This document shows, piece by piece, positions 1 through 3,964 of a DNA stretch of 3,964 nucleotides. The position numbers were made by a program, and so were the translations under genes. Under the pieces are notes generated by a model that saw nothing but the letters and a program-made list of their open reading frames with translations, made no database searches and had not been told where the DNA came from. The stretch's first letter is position 1. Each line of letters opens with the position of its first letter. The stretch lies in assembly GCF_003334385.1 (NCBI RefSeq), contig NZ_QOWN01000090.1. One strand, written 5' to 3'. The DNA comes from Escherichia coli. Its GTDB lineage: Bacteria; Pseudomonadota; Gammaproteobacteria; Enterobacterales; Enterobacteriaceae.

Positions 1-314
<314 letters not shown>

Positions 315-318
315 CAAT

Positions 319-341
319 TAATACGACTCAGTATGGGGAGA
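319..341 (+). promoter_or_regulatory. T7-group phage RNA polymerase promoter-like element P1, with predicted +1 at G336.
   Basis: TAATACGACTCAGTATGGGGAGA matches the T7 consensus TAATACGACTCACTATAGGGAGA at 21/23. The differences are at -5 (C to G) and -1 (A to G). The -12 to -8 specificity block CGACT and the GGGAGA initiation region are intact. It starts 5 nt after the upstream stop codon. Confidence 0.7.
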
Positions 342-428
342 GGGCCTCTGACGAACCCACAGATAGTGTGGTCTCATGCCCTTAGTTGCCCATATCTATT
401 TACGAATCCACCTTAAAGTCAATAGAAA

Positions 429-451
429 CAATACGACTCGCTAATGGGAGA
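429..451 (+). promoter_or_regulatory. T7-group phage RNA polymerase promoter-like element P2, with predicted +1 at G446.
   Basis: CAATACGACTCGCTAATGGGAGA matches the T7 consensus at 19/23, with differences at -17, -6, -2 and -1. It shares AATACGACTC and GGGAGAG with P1. It has the same orientation as P1, and the two +1 positions are 110 bp apart. Confidence 0.6.
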
Positions 452-472
452 GCGGTGACAAAAAGTTTTCCC
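446..472 (+). other. Predicted 5' leader stem-loop of the P2 transcript, resembling the phi10 leader.
   Basis: GGGAGAG (446-452) can pair with TTTTCCC (466-472) to give 7 bp including two G-U pairs, with a 13-nt loop. The T7 phi10 leader, as I recall it, is GGGAGACCACAACGGTTTCCCTCTAGA. Here the sequence is GGGAGAGCGGTGACAAAAAGTTTTCCCTCTATGA. Confidence 0.4.
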
Positions 473-640
473 TCTATGACAACTAACTGTAACTTATCGC
501 ATCCTTTCAGGGGCGGGATGACCAATTACAGACACCAAGCGTTCTACTTAAAGTGAATGCTTCCTGTGTGCTCTGGGTCAGTCGATAAGTGAATAGCAAT
601 AGACATCATATTAACTATGGTCTCTGGTCTACAGGGGCTA

Positions 641-780
641 AACTTAAAGTTTACTTAAAGACCTTAAAGTTATATTACTTGTTTACACAAGATAATAATA
701 AAAACTTAAAGAATAACTTTAAGAGTACTTATGATTATCTATCATTTAATCTTGTCATAATTCACTTTTGTAATAACTAA
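641..780. other. Strongly AT-rich tract, a candidate DNA-unwinding or origin-like region.
   Basis: I counted 28 G/C in 140 nt, about 80% A+T. The tract lies downstream of the two phage-type promoters and overlaps the densest heptamer cluster. It has no credible coding potential. Confidence 0.4.
650..678 (+). promoter_or_regulatory. Weak candidate sigma70 promoter with -35 TTTACT, a 17-nt spacer and -10 TATTAC.
   Basis: TTTACTTAAAGACCTTAAAGTTATATTAC has the same layout as the T7 A1 early promoter as I recall it (TTGACTTAAAGTCTAACCTATAGGATACT). The -10 lacks the final conserved T, so its activity is doubtful. Confidence 0.2.
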
Positions 781-844
781 CGATGTCTCCACAAGACACC
801 GATCCTATCAATCTCAAAGACATCCACAATGTTTACCCTTTGTT

Positions 845-879
845 CTGCTGGTCCTCCTTCATTTGAGGACCTTGGGCAG
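845..879 (+). other. Imperfect hairpin with an internal loop in the 5' UTR of the Rha-like gene.
   Basis: GGTCCTC (850-856) pairs with GAGGACC (865-871) as a perfect 7-bp stem with an 8-nt loop. It is extended by CTGC (845-848) pairing with GCAG (876-879) across an asymmetric internal loop. It ends about 30 nt upstream of the SD at 910-915. Confidence 0.35.
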
Positions 880-924
880 GTCAGTGGGTTGTGGCTCAGG
901 GTGCAAACAAAGGAGTACAACGAT

Positions 925-1629
925 ATGGCTCAACAAGTAATTAGCTTTAATAATGAATTCTCAATGTCTTCCTACGAGTTTCTGACCACGATTATCAATC
1001 CAGCCCGTGAAGAAGCAGGGGAGAAACCTGTCCGAAATAATGCCTTTATAGAGCGTGTCCGTGATGAATTGGACGGTTGCCAAAATTTGGTAAGCGATAT
1101 GGTTACACCAGCCGGAGGTGGTACTCCTATGGAAAACGTCATCCTCAATGGCGATCAATTACTTCTGGTCGGTATGCGAGAGTCTAAAGCTGTGCGTCGT
1201 AAGGTTCTGGAGTACATTCGACGAATTGAGAAGGCTAAGCAGTTATTGGAAGACCAGAAGAAACGAGCAGCTATCCAGTCAGCTAACCGTCGTGGCGTAA
1301 CGTGGGGTGATTTCTGTAAGGCCAACGAGCTACCCGCACAGAAACTACTACTTGCGCTCAGGAAGCAGGGACGCCTATTACGCTGGCGCATGGATAATAC
1401 TGTCACGGTTCATCCGCATTTTGCGCAATACTTTCGGATCATCAAATATAATGATGCGAAGTTCAGCTCTACAGGTATCAACTTCAGGTTGAACACCAAG
1501 GGGGTGGAGTTCTTCTCACAACCCGACCGTGTGGCCCGCTTCCGGGAAATCCTTGTTGAGCAATACGGGTCTGATATTGACAAGCAACGTCTATTGCAGT
1601 CGAAAGCGCGGCAGGCTGTAGAGTTATGA
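925..1629 (+). CDS. Phage-type regulatory protein of 234 aa. The N-terminus is Rha/Bro-like and the C-terminus is KilA-C/ANT (antirepressor)-like.
   Basis: A consensus SD AAGGAG at 910-915 lies 9 nt before ATG 925. The ATG at 829 given in the ORF track has no RBS. The N-terminal part (SSYEFLTTIINP...VRNNAFIERVRDEL...DQLLLVGMRESKAVRRKVLEYI) and the C-terminal part (VTWGDFCKANELPAQKLLLALRKQGRLL...TKGVEFF) resemble phage Rha/antirepressor modules by eye. The family call has not been checked with an HMM search. Confidence 0.8.
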   Translation: MAQQVISFNNEFSMSSYEFLTTIINPAREEAGEKPVRNNAFIERVRDELDGCQNLVSDMVTPAGGGTPMENVILNGDQLLLVGMRESKAVRRKVLEYIRRIEKAKQLLEDQKKRAAIQSANRRGVTWGDFCKANELPAQKLLLALRKQGRLLRWRMDNTVTVHPHFAQYFRIIKYNDAKFSSTGINFRLNTKGVEFFSQPDRVARFREILVEQYGSDIDKQRLLQSKARQAVEL

Positions 1630-1739
1630 ATAAGAGTATCAAGCTTGGCCCTCGTACACCAGAAAGCCGCAAAGCGTTACACCTGATGACAGTCGATAGT
1701 GCTTCCATTGTGCCCGCTTTGGGTTTGCCCCCCTCTTGA
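1626..1739 (+). CDS. Possible translationally coupled small ORF of 37 aa (MNKSIKLGPRTPESRKALHLMTVDSASIVPALGLPPS). It may be a gene remnant.
   Basis: Its ATG (1626-1628) overlaps the upstream TGA (1627-1629) in an ATGA arrangement. I recognise no homology, and it is below the ORF-track size cut-off. Confidence 0.2.
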   Translation: MNKSIKLGPRTPESRKALHLMTVDSASIVPALGLPPS

Positions 1740-1830
1740 TGAACCCTGTCTACGTAAAGGCTGCTTTGTGCCTCATCATAGTTGTTGTGGGATTATCATC
1801 TAAAGATTCTCATGGTTGATATAGGTGTCG

Positions 1831-1868
1831 GCGATCAATTTCAAATTATCGATCGAGATAAACGATCG
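1831..1868. promoter_or_regulatory. Cluster of three GATC sites and two CGATCG palindromes. It is a candidate operator or Dam-sensitive site upstream of the 158-aa gene.
   Basis: GCGATC lies at 1831-1836, with CGATCG at 1850-1855 and 1863-1868. The GATC cores are at 1833, 1851 and 1864. The cluster lies 60-100 nt upstream of GTG 1930. Confidence 0.3.
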
Positions 1869-1929
1869 GTGTGATGGCTGCAATCACGTTATCCTTTGGG
1901 CACCCTTCTGAAATTTTGAGGATATAAAT

Positions 1930-2406
1930 GTGTTTGGGCTTTTTAAGAAAAAGACAAAAGCGGAAAGACGCTATGATGTGACACGCATTCAGTACGAATT
2001 GGTCGTGATGTCATCTGGACTGATAAGCAAACAAACTGTGATGTTCAATGCTATGATGGATAAGGAGCGTAGAGAGTTAGAGGGCTCTCCGTATTTATCT
2101 GCGGGGTACATTACTCCTTGGGTTATTGGGTATATCACTGGCATTTTGGATGCGGTTACTCAAACTGAGGCTAACAGGATGGCATTTACGTCGGAAATGC
2201 TTGGGCTTATTTTTTCAGTCGTTTTCGGTGATGATAAGTCTCATGACGCCATGGTAACTTATATAGCCTGTAACGAAGCCTCCTCACCAGACCATGAATT
2301 TCATGTTACGTACGAGCTCTATATGACTGGTCTTGCGAAAGCTTTTAATGAGGTATGTGAGAATAAACCTGTAATAGGGCTCATGAACTATTTAATGCGG
2401 GATTAA
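1930..2406 (+). CDS. Hypothetical protein of 158 aa with a GTG start and no family that I recognise.
   Basis: GAGGA at 1917-1921 lies 8 nt before GTG 1930. The frame is clean and open with protein-like composition (MFGLFKKKTKAERRYDV...). The ATG at 1928 is in another frame and terminates after 17 codons. Confidence 0.7.
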   Translation: MFGLFKKKTKAERRYDVTRIQYELVVMSSGLISKQTVMFNAMMDKERRELEGSPYLSAGYITPWVIGYITGILDAVTQTEANRMAFTSEMLGLIFSVVFGDDKSHDAMVTYIACNEASSPDHEFHVTYELYMTGLAKAFNEVCENKPVIGLMNYLMRD

Positions 2407-2865
2407 AATTTCCTACAAAAATCTGAGCGTCTATCTAATAGTTCATCCTCTCGCGTTGTCCCCGTAGCCCTCCTTGAGTTTGCCCTGAAGCGAGGGAAGC
2501 TCCCCCCTTCAAGTCGAAAGATTGGGAACCTTCCAGATGTTCTGGCCTTGGTTCTATTCCGTTTGTGGGAATATTACAGGTATCCGACCTTGACCAGAGA
2601 TCACTCAGTGTGTAACCATAACTGTAACCAAATGGATTCATTATATCTTTAAGAAACAAATGGTTATTGAGTGATTGTCTTCGATGCTTCGATTCCCTTC
2701 GCCCGCTCCAATTTATCTTCGCCGTAATACTTCCCCATTTTGTTGTAAATAAAAAGCGTTTACGCAATGCAATCCTTTTGTAACAACCCAGGTAAAACAC
2801 CTTATTTTCAAGTTGTTAAATAAGTGGTTATCTACGCTTTTAACAAACGATTGATGGAATATTTT

Positions 2866-3891
2866 ATGAAAGGGAAATCTGCATTAACTCTTCTGCTCGC
2901 TGGTATATTTTCGTGCGGCACATGCCAGGCGACAGGGGCAGAAGTGACGAGTGAATCTGTATTTAACATTCTTAATTCCACGGGGGCAGCAACAGATAAA
3001 AGTTATTTATCGTTAAATCCAGATAAGTATCCTAATTATCGTCTTCTGATTCACTCAGCCAAATTACAAAATGAAATAAAGAGCCACTATACCAAAGACG
3101 AAATTCAAGGATTGCTAACATTAACAGAAAACACACGAAAGTTAACGTTGACGGAGAAACCCTGGGGAACGTTTATTCTTGCTTCTACTTTCGAAGATGA
3201 CAAAACAGCGGCAGAAACCCACTATGATGCTGTCTGGTTGAGGGATAGTTTATGGGGCTATATGGCATTAGTATCAGATCAGGGAAATAGTGTAGCCGCA
3301 AAAAAGGTTCTGCTCACCCTGTGGGATTATATGTCTACGCCCGACCAGATTAAGCGGATGCAGGACGTCATTAGCAACCCAAAACGACTGGATGGAATTC
3401 CCGTGCAAATGAATGCTGTGCATATCCGATTTGACAGCAACTCCCCCGTGATGGCAGATGTGCAGGAAGAAGGCAAGCCGCAGCTGTGGAACCATAAACA
3501 AAATGATGCTTTAGGTCTTTACCTTGATCTCCTTATACAAGCAATCAACACTGGTACTATTAACGCTGAAGATTGGCAAAAAGGTGACCGATTAAAGTCG
3601 GTTGCGCTGCTGATTGCTTATCTGGATAAAGCCAATTTCTATGTTATGGAAGATTCCTGAGCATGGGAAGAAGATGCCCGATTAAACACATCTTCCGTTG
3701 CACTGGTGACCTCTGGACTGGAACGTTTGTCAAACCTACTCTCGAAGAAAGACTCTGTTTTTGTCTCTGATTTACTACGCGAAGCTAAAGTCAATGAACT
3801 GGATGAAACTCTTTCAACAACGAGGTTGAACCACCTCATAGATAAAGGTTATGAAAGAATAACGTTACAGCTTGATTTAGGGGGAGAATCC
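2866..3891 (+). pseudogene. Exported GH15-family (glucoamylase / phosphorylase-kinase-like) glycoside hydrolase. It is inactivated by an in-frame TGA at 3658-3660 and 3'-truncated by IS186.
   Basis: It has an N-terminal signal peptide MKGKSALTLLLAGIFSCGTCQA. GH15-like motifs are YDAVWLRDS, NHKQNDALGLYLD and EDS*AWEED. The last corresponds to the conserved G-x-WEE catalytic-acid region, with TGA where GGA (Gly) would be expected. ORFs 2824-3660 and 3706-3903 are in the same frame. The reading frame runs straight into the IS186 terminus at 3892. Confidence 0.8.
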
Positions 3892-3964
3892 CATAAGCGC
3901 TAACTTAAGGGTTGTGGTATTACGCCTGATATGATTTAACGTGCCGATGAATTACTCTCACGAT
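3892..3964 (+). mobile_element. IS186 (IS4 family) terminal segment. It is the same end as at 1-75 and the element continues rightward off the window.
   Basis: CATAAGCGCTAACTTAAGGGTTG at 3892-3914 is the IS186 terminal IR as I recall it. The segment is the exact reverse complement of 1-75. The interior flank GGGGG-AGAAT-CC fits the IS186 target preference. Confidence 0.85.
3947..3964 (+). CDS. insL: IS186 transposase InsL, first six codons (MNYSHD). The CDS runs off the right edge.
   Basis: ATG AAT TAC TCT CAC GAT lies at 3947-3964 and matches the InsL N-terminus as I recall it. Confidence 0.7.

Follow-up and report, generated by a model that had tools for sequence, protein, structure and literature searches.

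What are promoters of the T7 type doing ahead of an operon in Escherichia coli? Few phages have been studied as thoroughly as T7, and to our knowledge neither a satellite of T7 nor a host element triggered by its polymerase has been described from nature. The window analysed here is a stretch of 3,964 nucleotides (contig NZ_QOWN01000090.1), in which the original prediction saw a cassette led by phage-polymerase promoters at 315-2406 and read it as a satellite of a T7-like helper, as an infection-triggered defence or decoy cassette (the two not being mutually exclusive) or, as the null hypothesis, as a decayed fragment of a T7-like genome. All of the features it listed are present and co-oriented, either exactly where it placed them or a few bases away (Table 1).

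Table 1. Features of the window, in window coordinates
Feature	Position	Strand	Remarks
IS4-family (IS421/IS186-like) end	3..87	.	Inverted copy of 3880-3964; cuts RAZR at ~75
RAZR/PD-T7-4, C-terminal 80 codons (DUF4145/HEPN RNase)	75..314	+	IS-truncated
T7-type promoter 1	319-341	+	TAATACGACTCAGTATGGGGAGA; 21/23 to T7 consensus, changes at -5, -1
T7-type promoter 2	429-451	+	CAATACGACTCGCTAATGGGAGA; 19/23 to T7 consensus, changes at -17, -6, -2, -1
Structured element, ~100 nt, conserved	492..590	+	Downstream of promoters; RNAalifold consensus, model R1
Heptamer array running into AT-rich tract	643..790	+	Candidate origin-like region; resembles T7 phiOL-A1 stretch
Leader hairpin, conserved	~828..909	+	Directly ahead of ribosome-binding site
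Ribosome-binding site AAGGAG	910-915	+	9 nt ahead of ATG at 925
Antirepressor (Ant/Rha)-like DNA-binding protein, 234 aa	925..1629	+	First gene of operon
Mini-ORF, 37 aa	1626..1739	+	Overlaps upstream stop codon (ATGA)
Orphan gene, 158 aa, predicted all-helical	1930..2406	+	Full-size islands have DUF6971 and capsid genes here instead
T7-group concatemer-junction left-boundary homologue	2403..2480	+	AAAAATCTGAGCGTCTA/TCTAATAGTTCA...CCCCGTAGCCC
Conserved motif GTGTAACCATAACTGTAAC	2610..2628	+	Probably integrase arm site of attP
attR	2682..2710	+	29-nt copy, 27/29 to tRNA-Gly(CCC) 3' end; right end of island
Second IS end	3880..3964	.	Inverted relative to 3-87; cuts ygeQ; beyond island

Phage-type promoters and candidate origin-like DNA

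A T7 class III-type promoter was defined by the 23-bp consensus TAATACGACTCACTATAGGGAGA with an intact recognition region at -17 to -7. At the sequence level both window promoters are of this type, with the -16 to -7 recognition region unchanged, and none of 200 shuffles contained a match. The site of promoter 1 is a perfect T7 promoter (23/23) in the loci L002, L005 and L006, and among phage sequences it is closest to the phiOR region of the T7 group; the site of promoter 2 reads TAATACGACTCACTAAAGGGAGA in relatives. Across the Enterobacterales, 20 related loci have promoters with differing -17 to -8 regions. These specificity regions vary by host genus and some are of the Klebsiella-phage type, for which 66 of 67 matching records were Klebsiella T7-like phages. 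The islands carry between one and four promoters for single-subunit phage RNA polymerases, ahead of the same operon and always on the same strand. All 19 matches to the promoter core fell inside islands, on the plus strand, with none in 125 kb of flanking DNA. A simple scan of the plus strand upstream of the first gene revealed no sigma-70-like promoter, in agreement with the original prediction, which had likewise seen no convincing one. The sequence ATCTATT at 394 was considered as a T7 class II pause site and set aside, as it is not conserved in relatives.

Downstream of the promoters lies a candidate origin-like region. The heptamer CTTAAAG is present in nine copies against 0.65 expected (six of them on the plus strand between 412 and 711), and the array is kept in relatives. 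GC content falls to 0.19 at 650-749, in the AT tract. In a T7 origin, two T7 promoters have AT-rich DNA close behind them, where initiation takes place. In the window the promoters are 110 nt apart and the AT-rich tract starts about 200 nt further on, with the structured element in between.

The closing stem of the structured element covaries across five sequence types, and Rfam matched no family anywhere in the window, this element included. The leader hairpin has 27 predicted pairs, and for 9 of them one or more of the 12 sequences compared, drawn from several genera, keep the pairing with both bases changed; in shape and position the hairpin resembles an RNase III processing site. The compensatory changes indicate that both the leader and the structured element are under selection.

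Genes of the operon

The product of the first gene matched PHROG anti-repressor Ant families with E values down to 1e-8, its N-terminal 100 amino acids share 45-50% identity with antirepressor-type proteins of temperate phages, and 404 homologues were found. No Pfam family matched above threshold, and this includes Phage_pRha (PF09669). The same slot in relatives encodes Rha- or KilA-N-type proteins, whose matches to Phage_pRha stay below threshold (E = 0.009-0.099). The gene in this first operon position varies among islands. Because its matches are to PHROG Ant families and temperate-phage N-terminal domains, with no Pfam Rha match, the protein is called only antirepressor-like here.

The mini-ORF that follows is a truncated member of a conserved family of small proteins (54-76 aa, motif DPRTPEGRKAL...LGLPP). 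When ten members of the family were compared with the window by tblastn, E values reached down to 9e-17, with the C-terminal part in another frame. Only 26 homologues of the orphan gene were found, all of them in Enterobacterales or on unlabelled metagenome contigs. AF2 gave one confident model of its protein among five (pLDDT 82). No family in Pfam, PHROG, PADLOC or NCBIfam matched the protein, BFVD contained no similar fold, and a profile comparison with DUF6971 proteins was negative too. Full-size relatives of 6.2-6.5 kb encode an HK97-fold capsid protein, a gene that the window type is without.

An integrative island found across the Enterobacterales

The cassette is part of a larger unit. 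In strain H7 this is an island of 4,768 bp, integrated at tRNA-Gly(CCC) with a 29-nt att repeat at its bounds; the window holds the right-hand part of the 4.8-kb island, with attR as its sole att site. Intact copies begin with an integrase of ~535 aa, followed by RAZR/PD-T7-4. Carriers of an intact island include K. pneumoniae ATCC 13883 and E. coli NMBU-W12E19, FWSEC0003 and ESY002. The island thus has its own integrase and attachment sites, as expected of a phage satellite that is a discrete mobile element. Relatives are known from at least 12 genera of Enterobacterales, with sizes of 4.5-6.5 kb. The recurrence that the original prediction had asked about is clear, as the cassette was seen as a unit in other strains and genera, behind phage-polymerase promoters every time. 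Gene order and the size of 6.2-6.5 kb are kept across several genera, with ORFs and att sites intact, and the same core was also found with an unrelated integrase at a different insertion site. Full-size islands consist of int and five or six further genes, the coat protein being the sole structural one, and the window type has three ORFs past the promoters. Islands of this type are without most virion, lysis and replication genes, which is again in keeping with a satellite. The slot after the integrase is variable, with RAZR as its usual occupant, and there are no transfer genes among the annotated genes of the 4.5-6.5-kb islands.

Profile searches of the window and its relatives detected no gene for a polymerase, replisome, portal, tail or terminase. 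When 50,697 phage records were searched by BLAST, there was no match at 1e-5 and no contiguous phage fragment, only matches the size of a promoter or a genome end. Neither the contiguous similarity nor the RNA polymerase, replisome, portal or terminase genes that would identify an Autographiviridae prophage or fragment were found. Judged by these searches the window is a piece of no known phage, and the null hypothesis was not borne out as stated. That hypothesis can be put as a T7-like temperate prophage that has decayed and serves no function today. Deletion could leave an integrase beside promoters of the T7 type, DNA from a genome end and a capsid gene, and the window copy, with its IS-cut, its truncated small ORF and its mismatched promoters, would suit such a history. 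However, decay does not explain a compact gene order with intact ORFs and att sites in many genera, a core that also occurs with a second integrase, the traceless absence of the phage genes named above, or phage matches at promoter or terminus scale only. Nor does it fit with a capsid protein that has no sequence relative in the 50,697 phage records, or with the selection indicated by the compensatory changes in the leader and the structured element. A remnant of this kind is therefore considered very improbable.

Some of the same searches also count against a satellite. The lack of a phage relative of the capsid protein is one such result, and no replication or small-terminase gene was recognised. 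A pattern search of IMG/VR and JGI metagenome contigs for the excised (attP) junction returned no match, and the plasmid collection gave one partial match only, so that the element is not plasmid-borne. Short metagenome contigs (4.2-5.3 kb) with the orphan gene were considered as circles and proved to be integrated copies broken at the att repeat. Similarly, IMG/VR matches to the structured element were discarded as virion data, being islands within isolate genomes. Whether the island fits a whole number of times into 40 kb is uninformative, because any unit so small has a multiple within 34-41 kb.

A copy of the T7-group concatemer junction

The original prediction spoke of packaging-like DNA. 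Such DNA is present, but mainly at 2403-2480, beyond the 315-2406 cassette, rather than in the heptamer array. By homology, this element covers the point where the unique right-hand sequence ends, the left-end cut site and the first part of the terminal repeat, and it lies just inside attR, downstream of the operon and on the same strand. More than 300 phage records match it, mostly of the T7 group, and among the matches listed all 16 with a terminal repeat or 'right' end in their annotation overlap it. Comparison of the window with the BA14 junction gave z = 14.5 across -24 to +47 of the repeat start, z values for homology to T7, T3 and BA14 were 8-18, and the junction of a Klebsiella relative matched T3-like phages at E = 1e-5. 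The junction element and the exact layout of the cut site are conserved in islands of every genus. This left-boundary homology provides what a satellite would need as a helper-matched cis signal, namely a putative packaging site.

The right boundary of the terminal repeat was not demonstrated in the island, which counts against the satellite reading. The candidate was GTGTAACCATAACTGTAAC at 2610, and its likeness to phage ends is weak (z 0.5-3.1). In the six copies where a regular expression found the motif (five islands and the window), it keeps a distance of 88-101 nt to the att core, whereas islands with a different integrase do not have it. The weak similarity to phage ends, the fixed distance and the absence with another integrase make it more likely that the motif is an arm site of attP.

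RAZR/PD-T7-4 and damage to the window copy

The gene at the left edge of the window is full-length in locus L001 (11611-12240; window positions are L001 positions minus 11926), where it matches PADLOC PD-T7-4 at E = 2.9e-100 as well as Pfam DUF4145. The full-length protein has a zinc ribbon and a DUF4145/HEPN domain, and only the last 80 codons are left in the window. RAZR/PD-T7-4 is a published anti-T7 abortive-infection RNase, which kills T7-infected cells once the T7 portal assembles (PMC13017515). A published remark that PD-T7-4 often overlaps an integrase gene (PMC13017515, PMC9519451) describes the same locus type as the intact islands of this study. The T7 promoter is mentioned twice in the main text of the RAZR paper (PMC13017515) and not at all in that of the PD-T7-4 paper (PMC9519451).

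The IS arms at either end of the window are 85 nt long and 95% complementary, an IS421-family transposase is annotated in H8 at the window edge, and identity with strain H7 starts at window position 75. With no capsid gene, a truncated small ORF, two and four mismatches in its promoters and RAZR cut by an IS, the window copy is a reduced and decaying island.

The identity of the upstream gene bears out part of the second reading in the original prediction, defence. A defence or decoy island would be triggered by the phage and never packaged: the invading polymerase would turn on toxic or interfering genes, which would back up RAZR as a second line, the promoters and the junction copy would titrate polymerase and terminase, and the island would spread by other means. 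The position of RAZR/PD-T7-4 directly upstream (PMC13017515) agrees with this, as do the variable post-integrase slot and first operon gene, which recall defence hotspots, the window type without a capsid gene, and the lack of any packaged or circular form in IMG/VR and JGI metagenome contigs. However, such an island leaves three things unexplained: why an HK97-fold capsid gene is conserved, how a 4.5-6.5-kb element with no transfer genes among those annotated came to spread so widely by horizontal transfer, and why the cut-site layout of the junction copy is exactly the same in every genus. Defence without packaging is considered rather unlikely. RAZR also sits awkwardly with a satellite, since it kills T7-infected cells while the satellite would rely on a T7-like helper.

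Proposed origin and function of the island family

The data presented here suggest that these islands are mobile elements of Enterobacterales that respond to T7-group phages and are probably their satellites, the window holding a reduced and decaying copy. The att sites and integrase, the concatemer-junction homologue downstream and the HK97-fold capsid gene of full-size relatives all lend support to the satellite reading first raised by the original prediction. A more specific model, whose chances we would put at about even, is a new family of 4.5-6.5-kb satellites of virulent T7-group phages. By mimicking the helper's promoters they would be induced directly by its RNA polymerase, the helper replisome would copy them, and a mimic of its terminal-repeat junction would bring about their packaging; full-size members would have a small capsid of their own, made from a single coat gene, and anti-T7 cargo.

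Under the satellite model, the element would stay quiet in the absence of a matching T7-like phage. On infection, the phage polymerase would transcribe the operon and continue through the junction-like site, and transcription over the promoter and AT-rich region would let the phage replisome copy the element, as at T7 origins. The phage terminase would cut the copies and package them, whether as multimers inside helper heads or in capsids made of the island's own coat protein, and packaged island DNA would start at TCTAATAG (window position 2434). In the next host, the integrase would insert the element into tRNA-Gly. It is also probable that the element interferes with its helper during this cycle.

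If this is true, T7, T3 and Klebsiella T7-like phages, including candidates for therapy, would gain a tractable satellite-helper pair. It would also represent a new principle of induction, in which a parasite reads the helper's own polymerase, and a natural route of gene transfer via phages held to be strictly lytic and non-transducing. Additionally, the published RAZR defence gene would sit within a larger phage-responsive element, and some wild E. coli and Klebsiella would carry perfect T7 promoters, which is relevant to T7-based expression and to phage therapy.

Comparison with known systems

In the literature searched, neither T7 promoters nor T7-type junction DNA had been described from a bacterial island. 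Several satellite systems nevertheless offer partial parallels. The cf-PICIs (e.g. EcCI2) are ~10-15 kb long, with a full head and packaging module and temperate helpers. Their complete module of coat, portal, connectors and small terminase was not found in the island family, which has only the coat and DUF6971 proteins in 6.2-6.5 kb, together with phage-polymerase promoters, and the window copy is without the coat gene. PICMIs and VEIMEs are thought to travel as multimers in full-size helper heads, and some of their helpers are virulent. We know of no reported use of helper-polymerase promoters or terminal-repeat copies by either, and no primase, AlpA or Fis-type genes like theirs were recognised in the island. 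Marine VEIMEs and PICMIs are, like the island, very small integrative elements, and VEIMEs are packaged as 8-17-mers (PMC9618062).

In the P4/P2 pair, the genes of the satellite are turned on by the transcription machinery of the helper, as is proposed for the island. P4 depends on activator proteins acting on the host polymerase, has a cos site, encodes a primase of its own as well as Sid, and is unrelated to the island in sequence. Like the island, P4 carries its defence genes within a hotspot (PMC13586616). The RAZR/PD-T7-4 system adjoins the operon in intact islands, whereas the window has a mere fragment of it.

In its DNA the island also resembles the genome ends of the T7 group themselves (phiOR, junction, terminal repeat, heptamer arrays, phiOL). 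The promoters, the AAAAATCTGAG...TATCTNATAG cut-site region, the CCCC(C)ATAG motif and the C(C/T)TAAAG heptamers are common to both. The arrangement differs, in that 2 kb separate the island promoters from the junction copy downstream of them, which is followed by attP, int and RAZR, and unlike the genome ends the island has no phage gene. As the title of Chung & Hinkle 1990 states (cited in PMC13172314, PMC9860248), T7 packages plasmids with a T7 origin and the concatemer junction. In such engineered transducing plasmids these sequences suffice for infecting T7 to replicate and package the DNA. The island differs from them in being natural, chromosomal and integrative, with genes of its own and the left boundary only. 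The cis logic is the same in both, T7 promoters with AT-rich DNA together with concatemer-junction sequence.

Phage-type signals in the cassette

All features listed in the original prediction were found, co-oriented on the plus strand (see table), and 200 shuffled controls gave zero promoter matches. CTTAAAG occurred nine times against 0.65 expected, with six plus-strand copies at 412-711, and GC in the AT-rich tract fell to 0.19 at 650-749. A simple plus-strand scan upstream of the first gene found no sigma-70-like promoter, in agreement with the prediction that a convincing one is lacking there. Of the Rha/antirepressor-like naming of this gene, the antirepressor part was borne out by PHROG antirepressor family matches; zero Pfam families were above threshold. 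Its own N-terminal 100 aa are like temperate-phage antirepressors, and its C-terminal half is common to relatives whose N-terminus appears Rha-type by eye. The 158-aa gene is an orphan as described, with no match in Pfam, PHROG, PADLOC or NCBIfam and only 26 homologues; the protein is predicted to be all-helical (one of five models confident), with no fold match in BFVD.

Features of the window
Feature	Position	Strand	Remarks
T7-type promoter 1	319-341	+	21/23 to TAATACGACTCACTATAGGGAGA; -16..-7 recognition region intact
T7-type promoter 2	429-451	+	19/23 to TAATACGACTCACTATAGGGAGA; -16..-7 recognition region intact
RNA-like element	492-590		about 100 nt, downstream of promoters
Antirepressor-like gene	925-1629	+	preceded by AAGGAG at 910-915; PHROG antirepressor family matches
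Mini-ORF	1626-1739	+	37 codons; overlaps stop codon of antirepressor-like gene
158-aa orphan gene	1930-2406	+	
Junction copy	2403-2480		
3' non-coding region	2407-2710		conserved across genera
Conserved motif near attR	2610-2628		
tRNA-Gly(CCC) 3'-end copy	2682-2710		29 nt, 27/29
ygeQ	2866-3892		in-frame TGA at 3658-3660
IS ends	3-87, 3880-3964		inverted copies of each other

Upstream of the ribosome-binding site, the leader is predicted to form a long hairpin of 27 pairs, 9 of which survive a change of both bases in at least one sequence, across genera; in position and shape it resembles a T7 RNase III site. The closing stem of the RNA-like element, which encloses a loop of conserved sequence, covaries over five sequence types, and this element had no match in Rfam.

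Genomic setting

Window 75-3892 matches E. coli H7 at 100% identity. In that strain actS and tRNA-Gly(CCC) are followed by genes for a 535-aa tyrosine integrase and a DUF4145 protein, then by a promoter region of 610 bp, both cassette genes, ygeQ and the ETT2 secretion island. The window contains a copy of the 3' end of this tRNA, which makes the whole unit an island of 4,768 bp flanked by attL and attR. Since the same IS4-family (IS421/IS186-like) end lies inverted at both edges, the window is an IS-bounded segment, possibly an entire short-read contig; in this genome the IS interrupts the DUF4145 gene near 75 and ygeQ near 3892. The TGA also splits ygeQ (glycoside hydrolase family 15), which is a single 1,611-nt gene in some other strains.

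Just past the tRNA, the island left end (9869-9918 in L001, a locus with the full DUF4145 gene, and equivalents) carries a conserved TTCTTAAAGT heptamer and ACTTACTGAATCCTAAGGGATACGGCTT, possibly part of an attP arm or of the integrase promoter. At 13361-13440 of L027 (Morganella psychrotolerans), attR runs straight into a second island left end, which suggests two islands in tandem.

Phage-type promoters in related islands

Recurrence of the cassette elsewhere had been proposed as a check, and the island core with phage-type promoters was found in other E. coli and other Enterobacterales genera. Elsewhere in E. coli, islands at this tRNA have a perfect 23/23 T7 promoter followed 109 nt downstream by TAATACGACTCACTAAAGGGAGA; relative to these sisters, both window promoters are changed within the -6..-1 region. 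E. coli ESY002 and K. pneumoniae ATCC 13883 have four promoters each: a perfect T7 promoter, AATTAGGGCACACTATAGGGAGA, a copy of AATTAGGGCACACTATAGGGAGA with one mismatch (...GGGGGA) and AATTAGGTAGCACTATAGGGAGA. The AATTAGGGCA type is that of Klebsiella T7-like phages in 66/67 matching records.

An integrase-based scan using one genome per species gave 20 loci, in Rouxiella, Lonsdalea, Klebsiella, Pectobacterium, Citrobacter, Buttiauxella, Shimwellia, Enterobacter, Proteus, Serratia, Edaphovirga, Morganella, Limnobaculum, Escherichia and Shigella. Most share the promoter core CACTATAGGGAGA with differing -17..-8 regions (for example AATTAACCCA, AATTAACTAT, ACTTAACTAT, ATGAGACCCA and AATAACGACT). 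At no more than one mismatch, the core matched 19 times in 11 delimited islands (64 kb), 19/19 on the plus strand, and zero times in 125 kb of flanking DNA. Judged from sequence, the island promoters are a conserved, selected feature.

Comparison with phage genomes

A blastn search of window 77-2450 against 50,697 phage records returned nothing at 1e-5. At relaxed thresholds the promoter region matched T7-group phages at their promoters only (best, phiOR), and matches of Proteus-type and Klebsiella-type regions were likewise confined to promoters. By this comparison the window belongs to no known phage genome: phage records match at promoter or terminus scale with no contiguous piece, and the null hypothesis of a decayed T7-like genome fragment was not borne out. 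A decayed prophage is an unlikely account of the island family, although the window copy shows decay of its own. That copy looks degraded because of its truncated mini-ORF, the promoter changes and the IS cuts.

The junction copy, a homologue of the left boundary of the T7-group concatemer junction, has matches in over 300 phage records, most of them T7-group; among the matches listed, 16/16 annotated as terminal repeat or 'right' end overlap it (BA14, Kvp1, T3, FE44, SH1 and others). Single E-values are weak (0.03-4), and the Klebsiella island copy matches T3 37944-37988 at E = 1e-5 (T3 repeat start, 37978). Local alignments, with z from shuffled controls and spans relative to the phage repeat start, gave z 14.5 for the window against BA14 (-24 to +47), z 18 for the Klebsiella locus L011 against T3 (38/45 identical; -33 to +11) and z 17.5 for the Proteus locus L023 against T3 (-40 to +71). 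The common layout is AAAAATCTGAG, five bases, TATCT(A/C)ATAG, then CCCC(C)ATAG. The predicted packaging-like DNA thus exists as a T7-type genome-end copy, but just beyond the 315-2406 span first assigned to the cassette.

No right boundary of the terminal repeat was found in the window 3' region by comparison with phage ends, which counts against a satellite. The conserved motif near attR, weakly like phage TGTGTCCCT then ATCTGT, was rejected as this boundary; its sequence context makes an attP arm site more likely, because its spacing from the att core is constant and no copy was found in other-integrase islands. A 24-nt inverted repeat (83%) between 1085-1108, inside the antirepressor-like gene, and 2610-2633, at this motif, may be chance.

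Gene content of the island family

In most relatives int precedes a variable slot, which usually holds RAZR. A promoter-bearing stretch of non-coding DNA (0.6-1.4 kb) comes next, then genes for a Rha/Ant/KilA-N-like protein, a small protein of 54-76 aa, a DUF6971 protein and a protein of 326-402 aa, and finally the junction copy and attR. Six loci from five genera measure 6.16-6.45 kb. The 326-402-aa protein matched no sequence family and had no sequence relative in the 50,697 phage records. Its AlphaFold model (pLDDT 69) has an HK97 fold with 149 BFVD matches at E <= 1e-3, almost all capsid or head proteins among the matches listed; on this modelled fold, the family encodes a capsid protein. 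The window subtype (4.45-4.77 kb) has the 158-aa orphan in place of the DUF6971 and capsid genes, and its mini-ORF encodes a truncated form of the 54-76-aa protein family.

A second lineage sits within a molybdopterin oxidoreductase gene; its integrase is 30% identical and its core proteins 86-95% identical, and it has its own phage-type promoters and the junction motif. In this lineage (E. coli L041-L043, about 5000-11300) the post-integrase slot holds an HNH_3 protein, and hundreds of E. coli contigs encode its antirepressor-like protein.

PADLOC identifies the DUF4145 gene as PD-T7-4 (E = 2.9e-100), now named RAZR, an abortive-infection HEPN RNase active against T7 and T3 and activated by the portal protein of either phage (PMC13017515). 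PD-T7-4 often overlaps an integrase gene (PMC9519451). A term search of the main texts gave two mentions of a T7 promoter in the RAZR paper (PMC13017515) and none in the PD-T7-4 paper (PMC9519451). Unrelated 139-201-aa proteins without any family match replace RAZR in L006 (3786-4391), L020/L021 (about 9643-10062), L013 and L017, and could be candidate defence genes. Among IMG/VR proviral calls from isolate genomes, L029 and L030 each have three perfect T7 promoters, spaced by about 120 nt, and L031 has a single one; none of these three islands shows a RAZR match between integrase and promoters.

A possible helper-driven cycle

From the observed sequence features we infer a cycle of induction, replication, packaging and integration driven by a helper. 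The operon would be silent without a phage polymerase, and an infecting T7-like phage would transcribe it on through the junction copy. The phage replisome would use the promoter and AT-rich region as its origin, copies would be packaged by the terminase, and a new host would receive them by integrase insertion.

Further points count against such a satellite: a helper-killing RAZR on the same element, no attP junction or circular form in IMG/VR or metagenome contigs, one partial match only in the plasmid collection, and no replication or small-terminase gene recognised among island genes. The strongest competing explanation, a defence or decoy island triggered by the phage polymerase and never packaged, accounts for RAZR and the variable genes but leaves the capsid gene and the spread of the element unexplained.

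For the satellite reading, plasmids with a T7 origin and the concatemer junction, reportedly described by Chung and Hinkle in 1990 (cited in PMC13172314 and PMC9860248), are a precedent. No T7-group satellite family using polymerase-promoter and terminal-repeat mimicry was described in the literature searched, where subscription papers were incompletely covered and a prior description is therefore possible. Satellites as such are already known, and small ones from the sea, packaged as 8-17-mers, provide a further precedent (PMC9618062).
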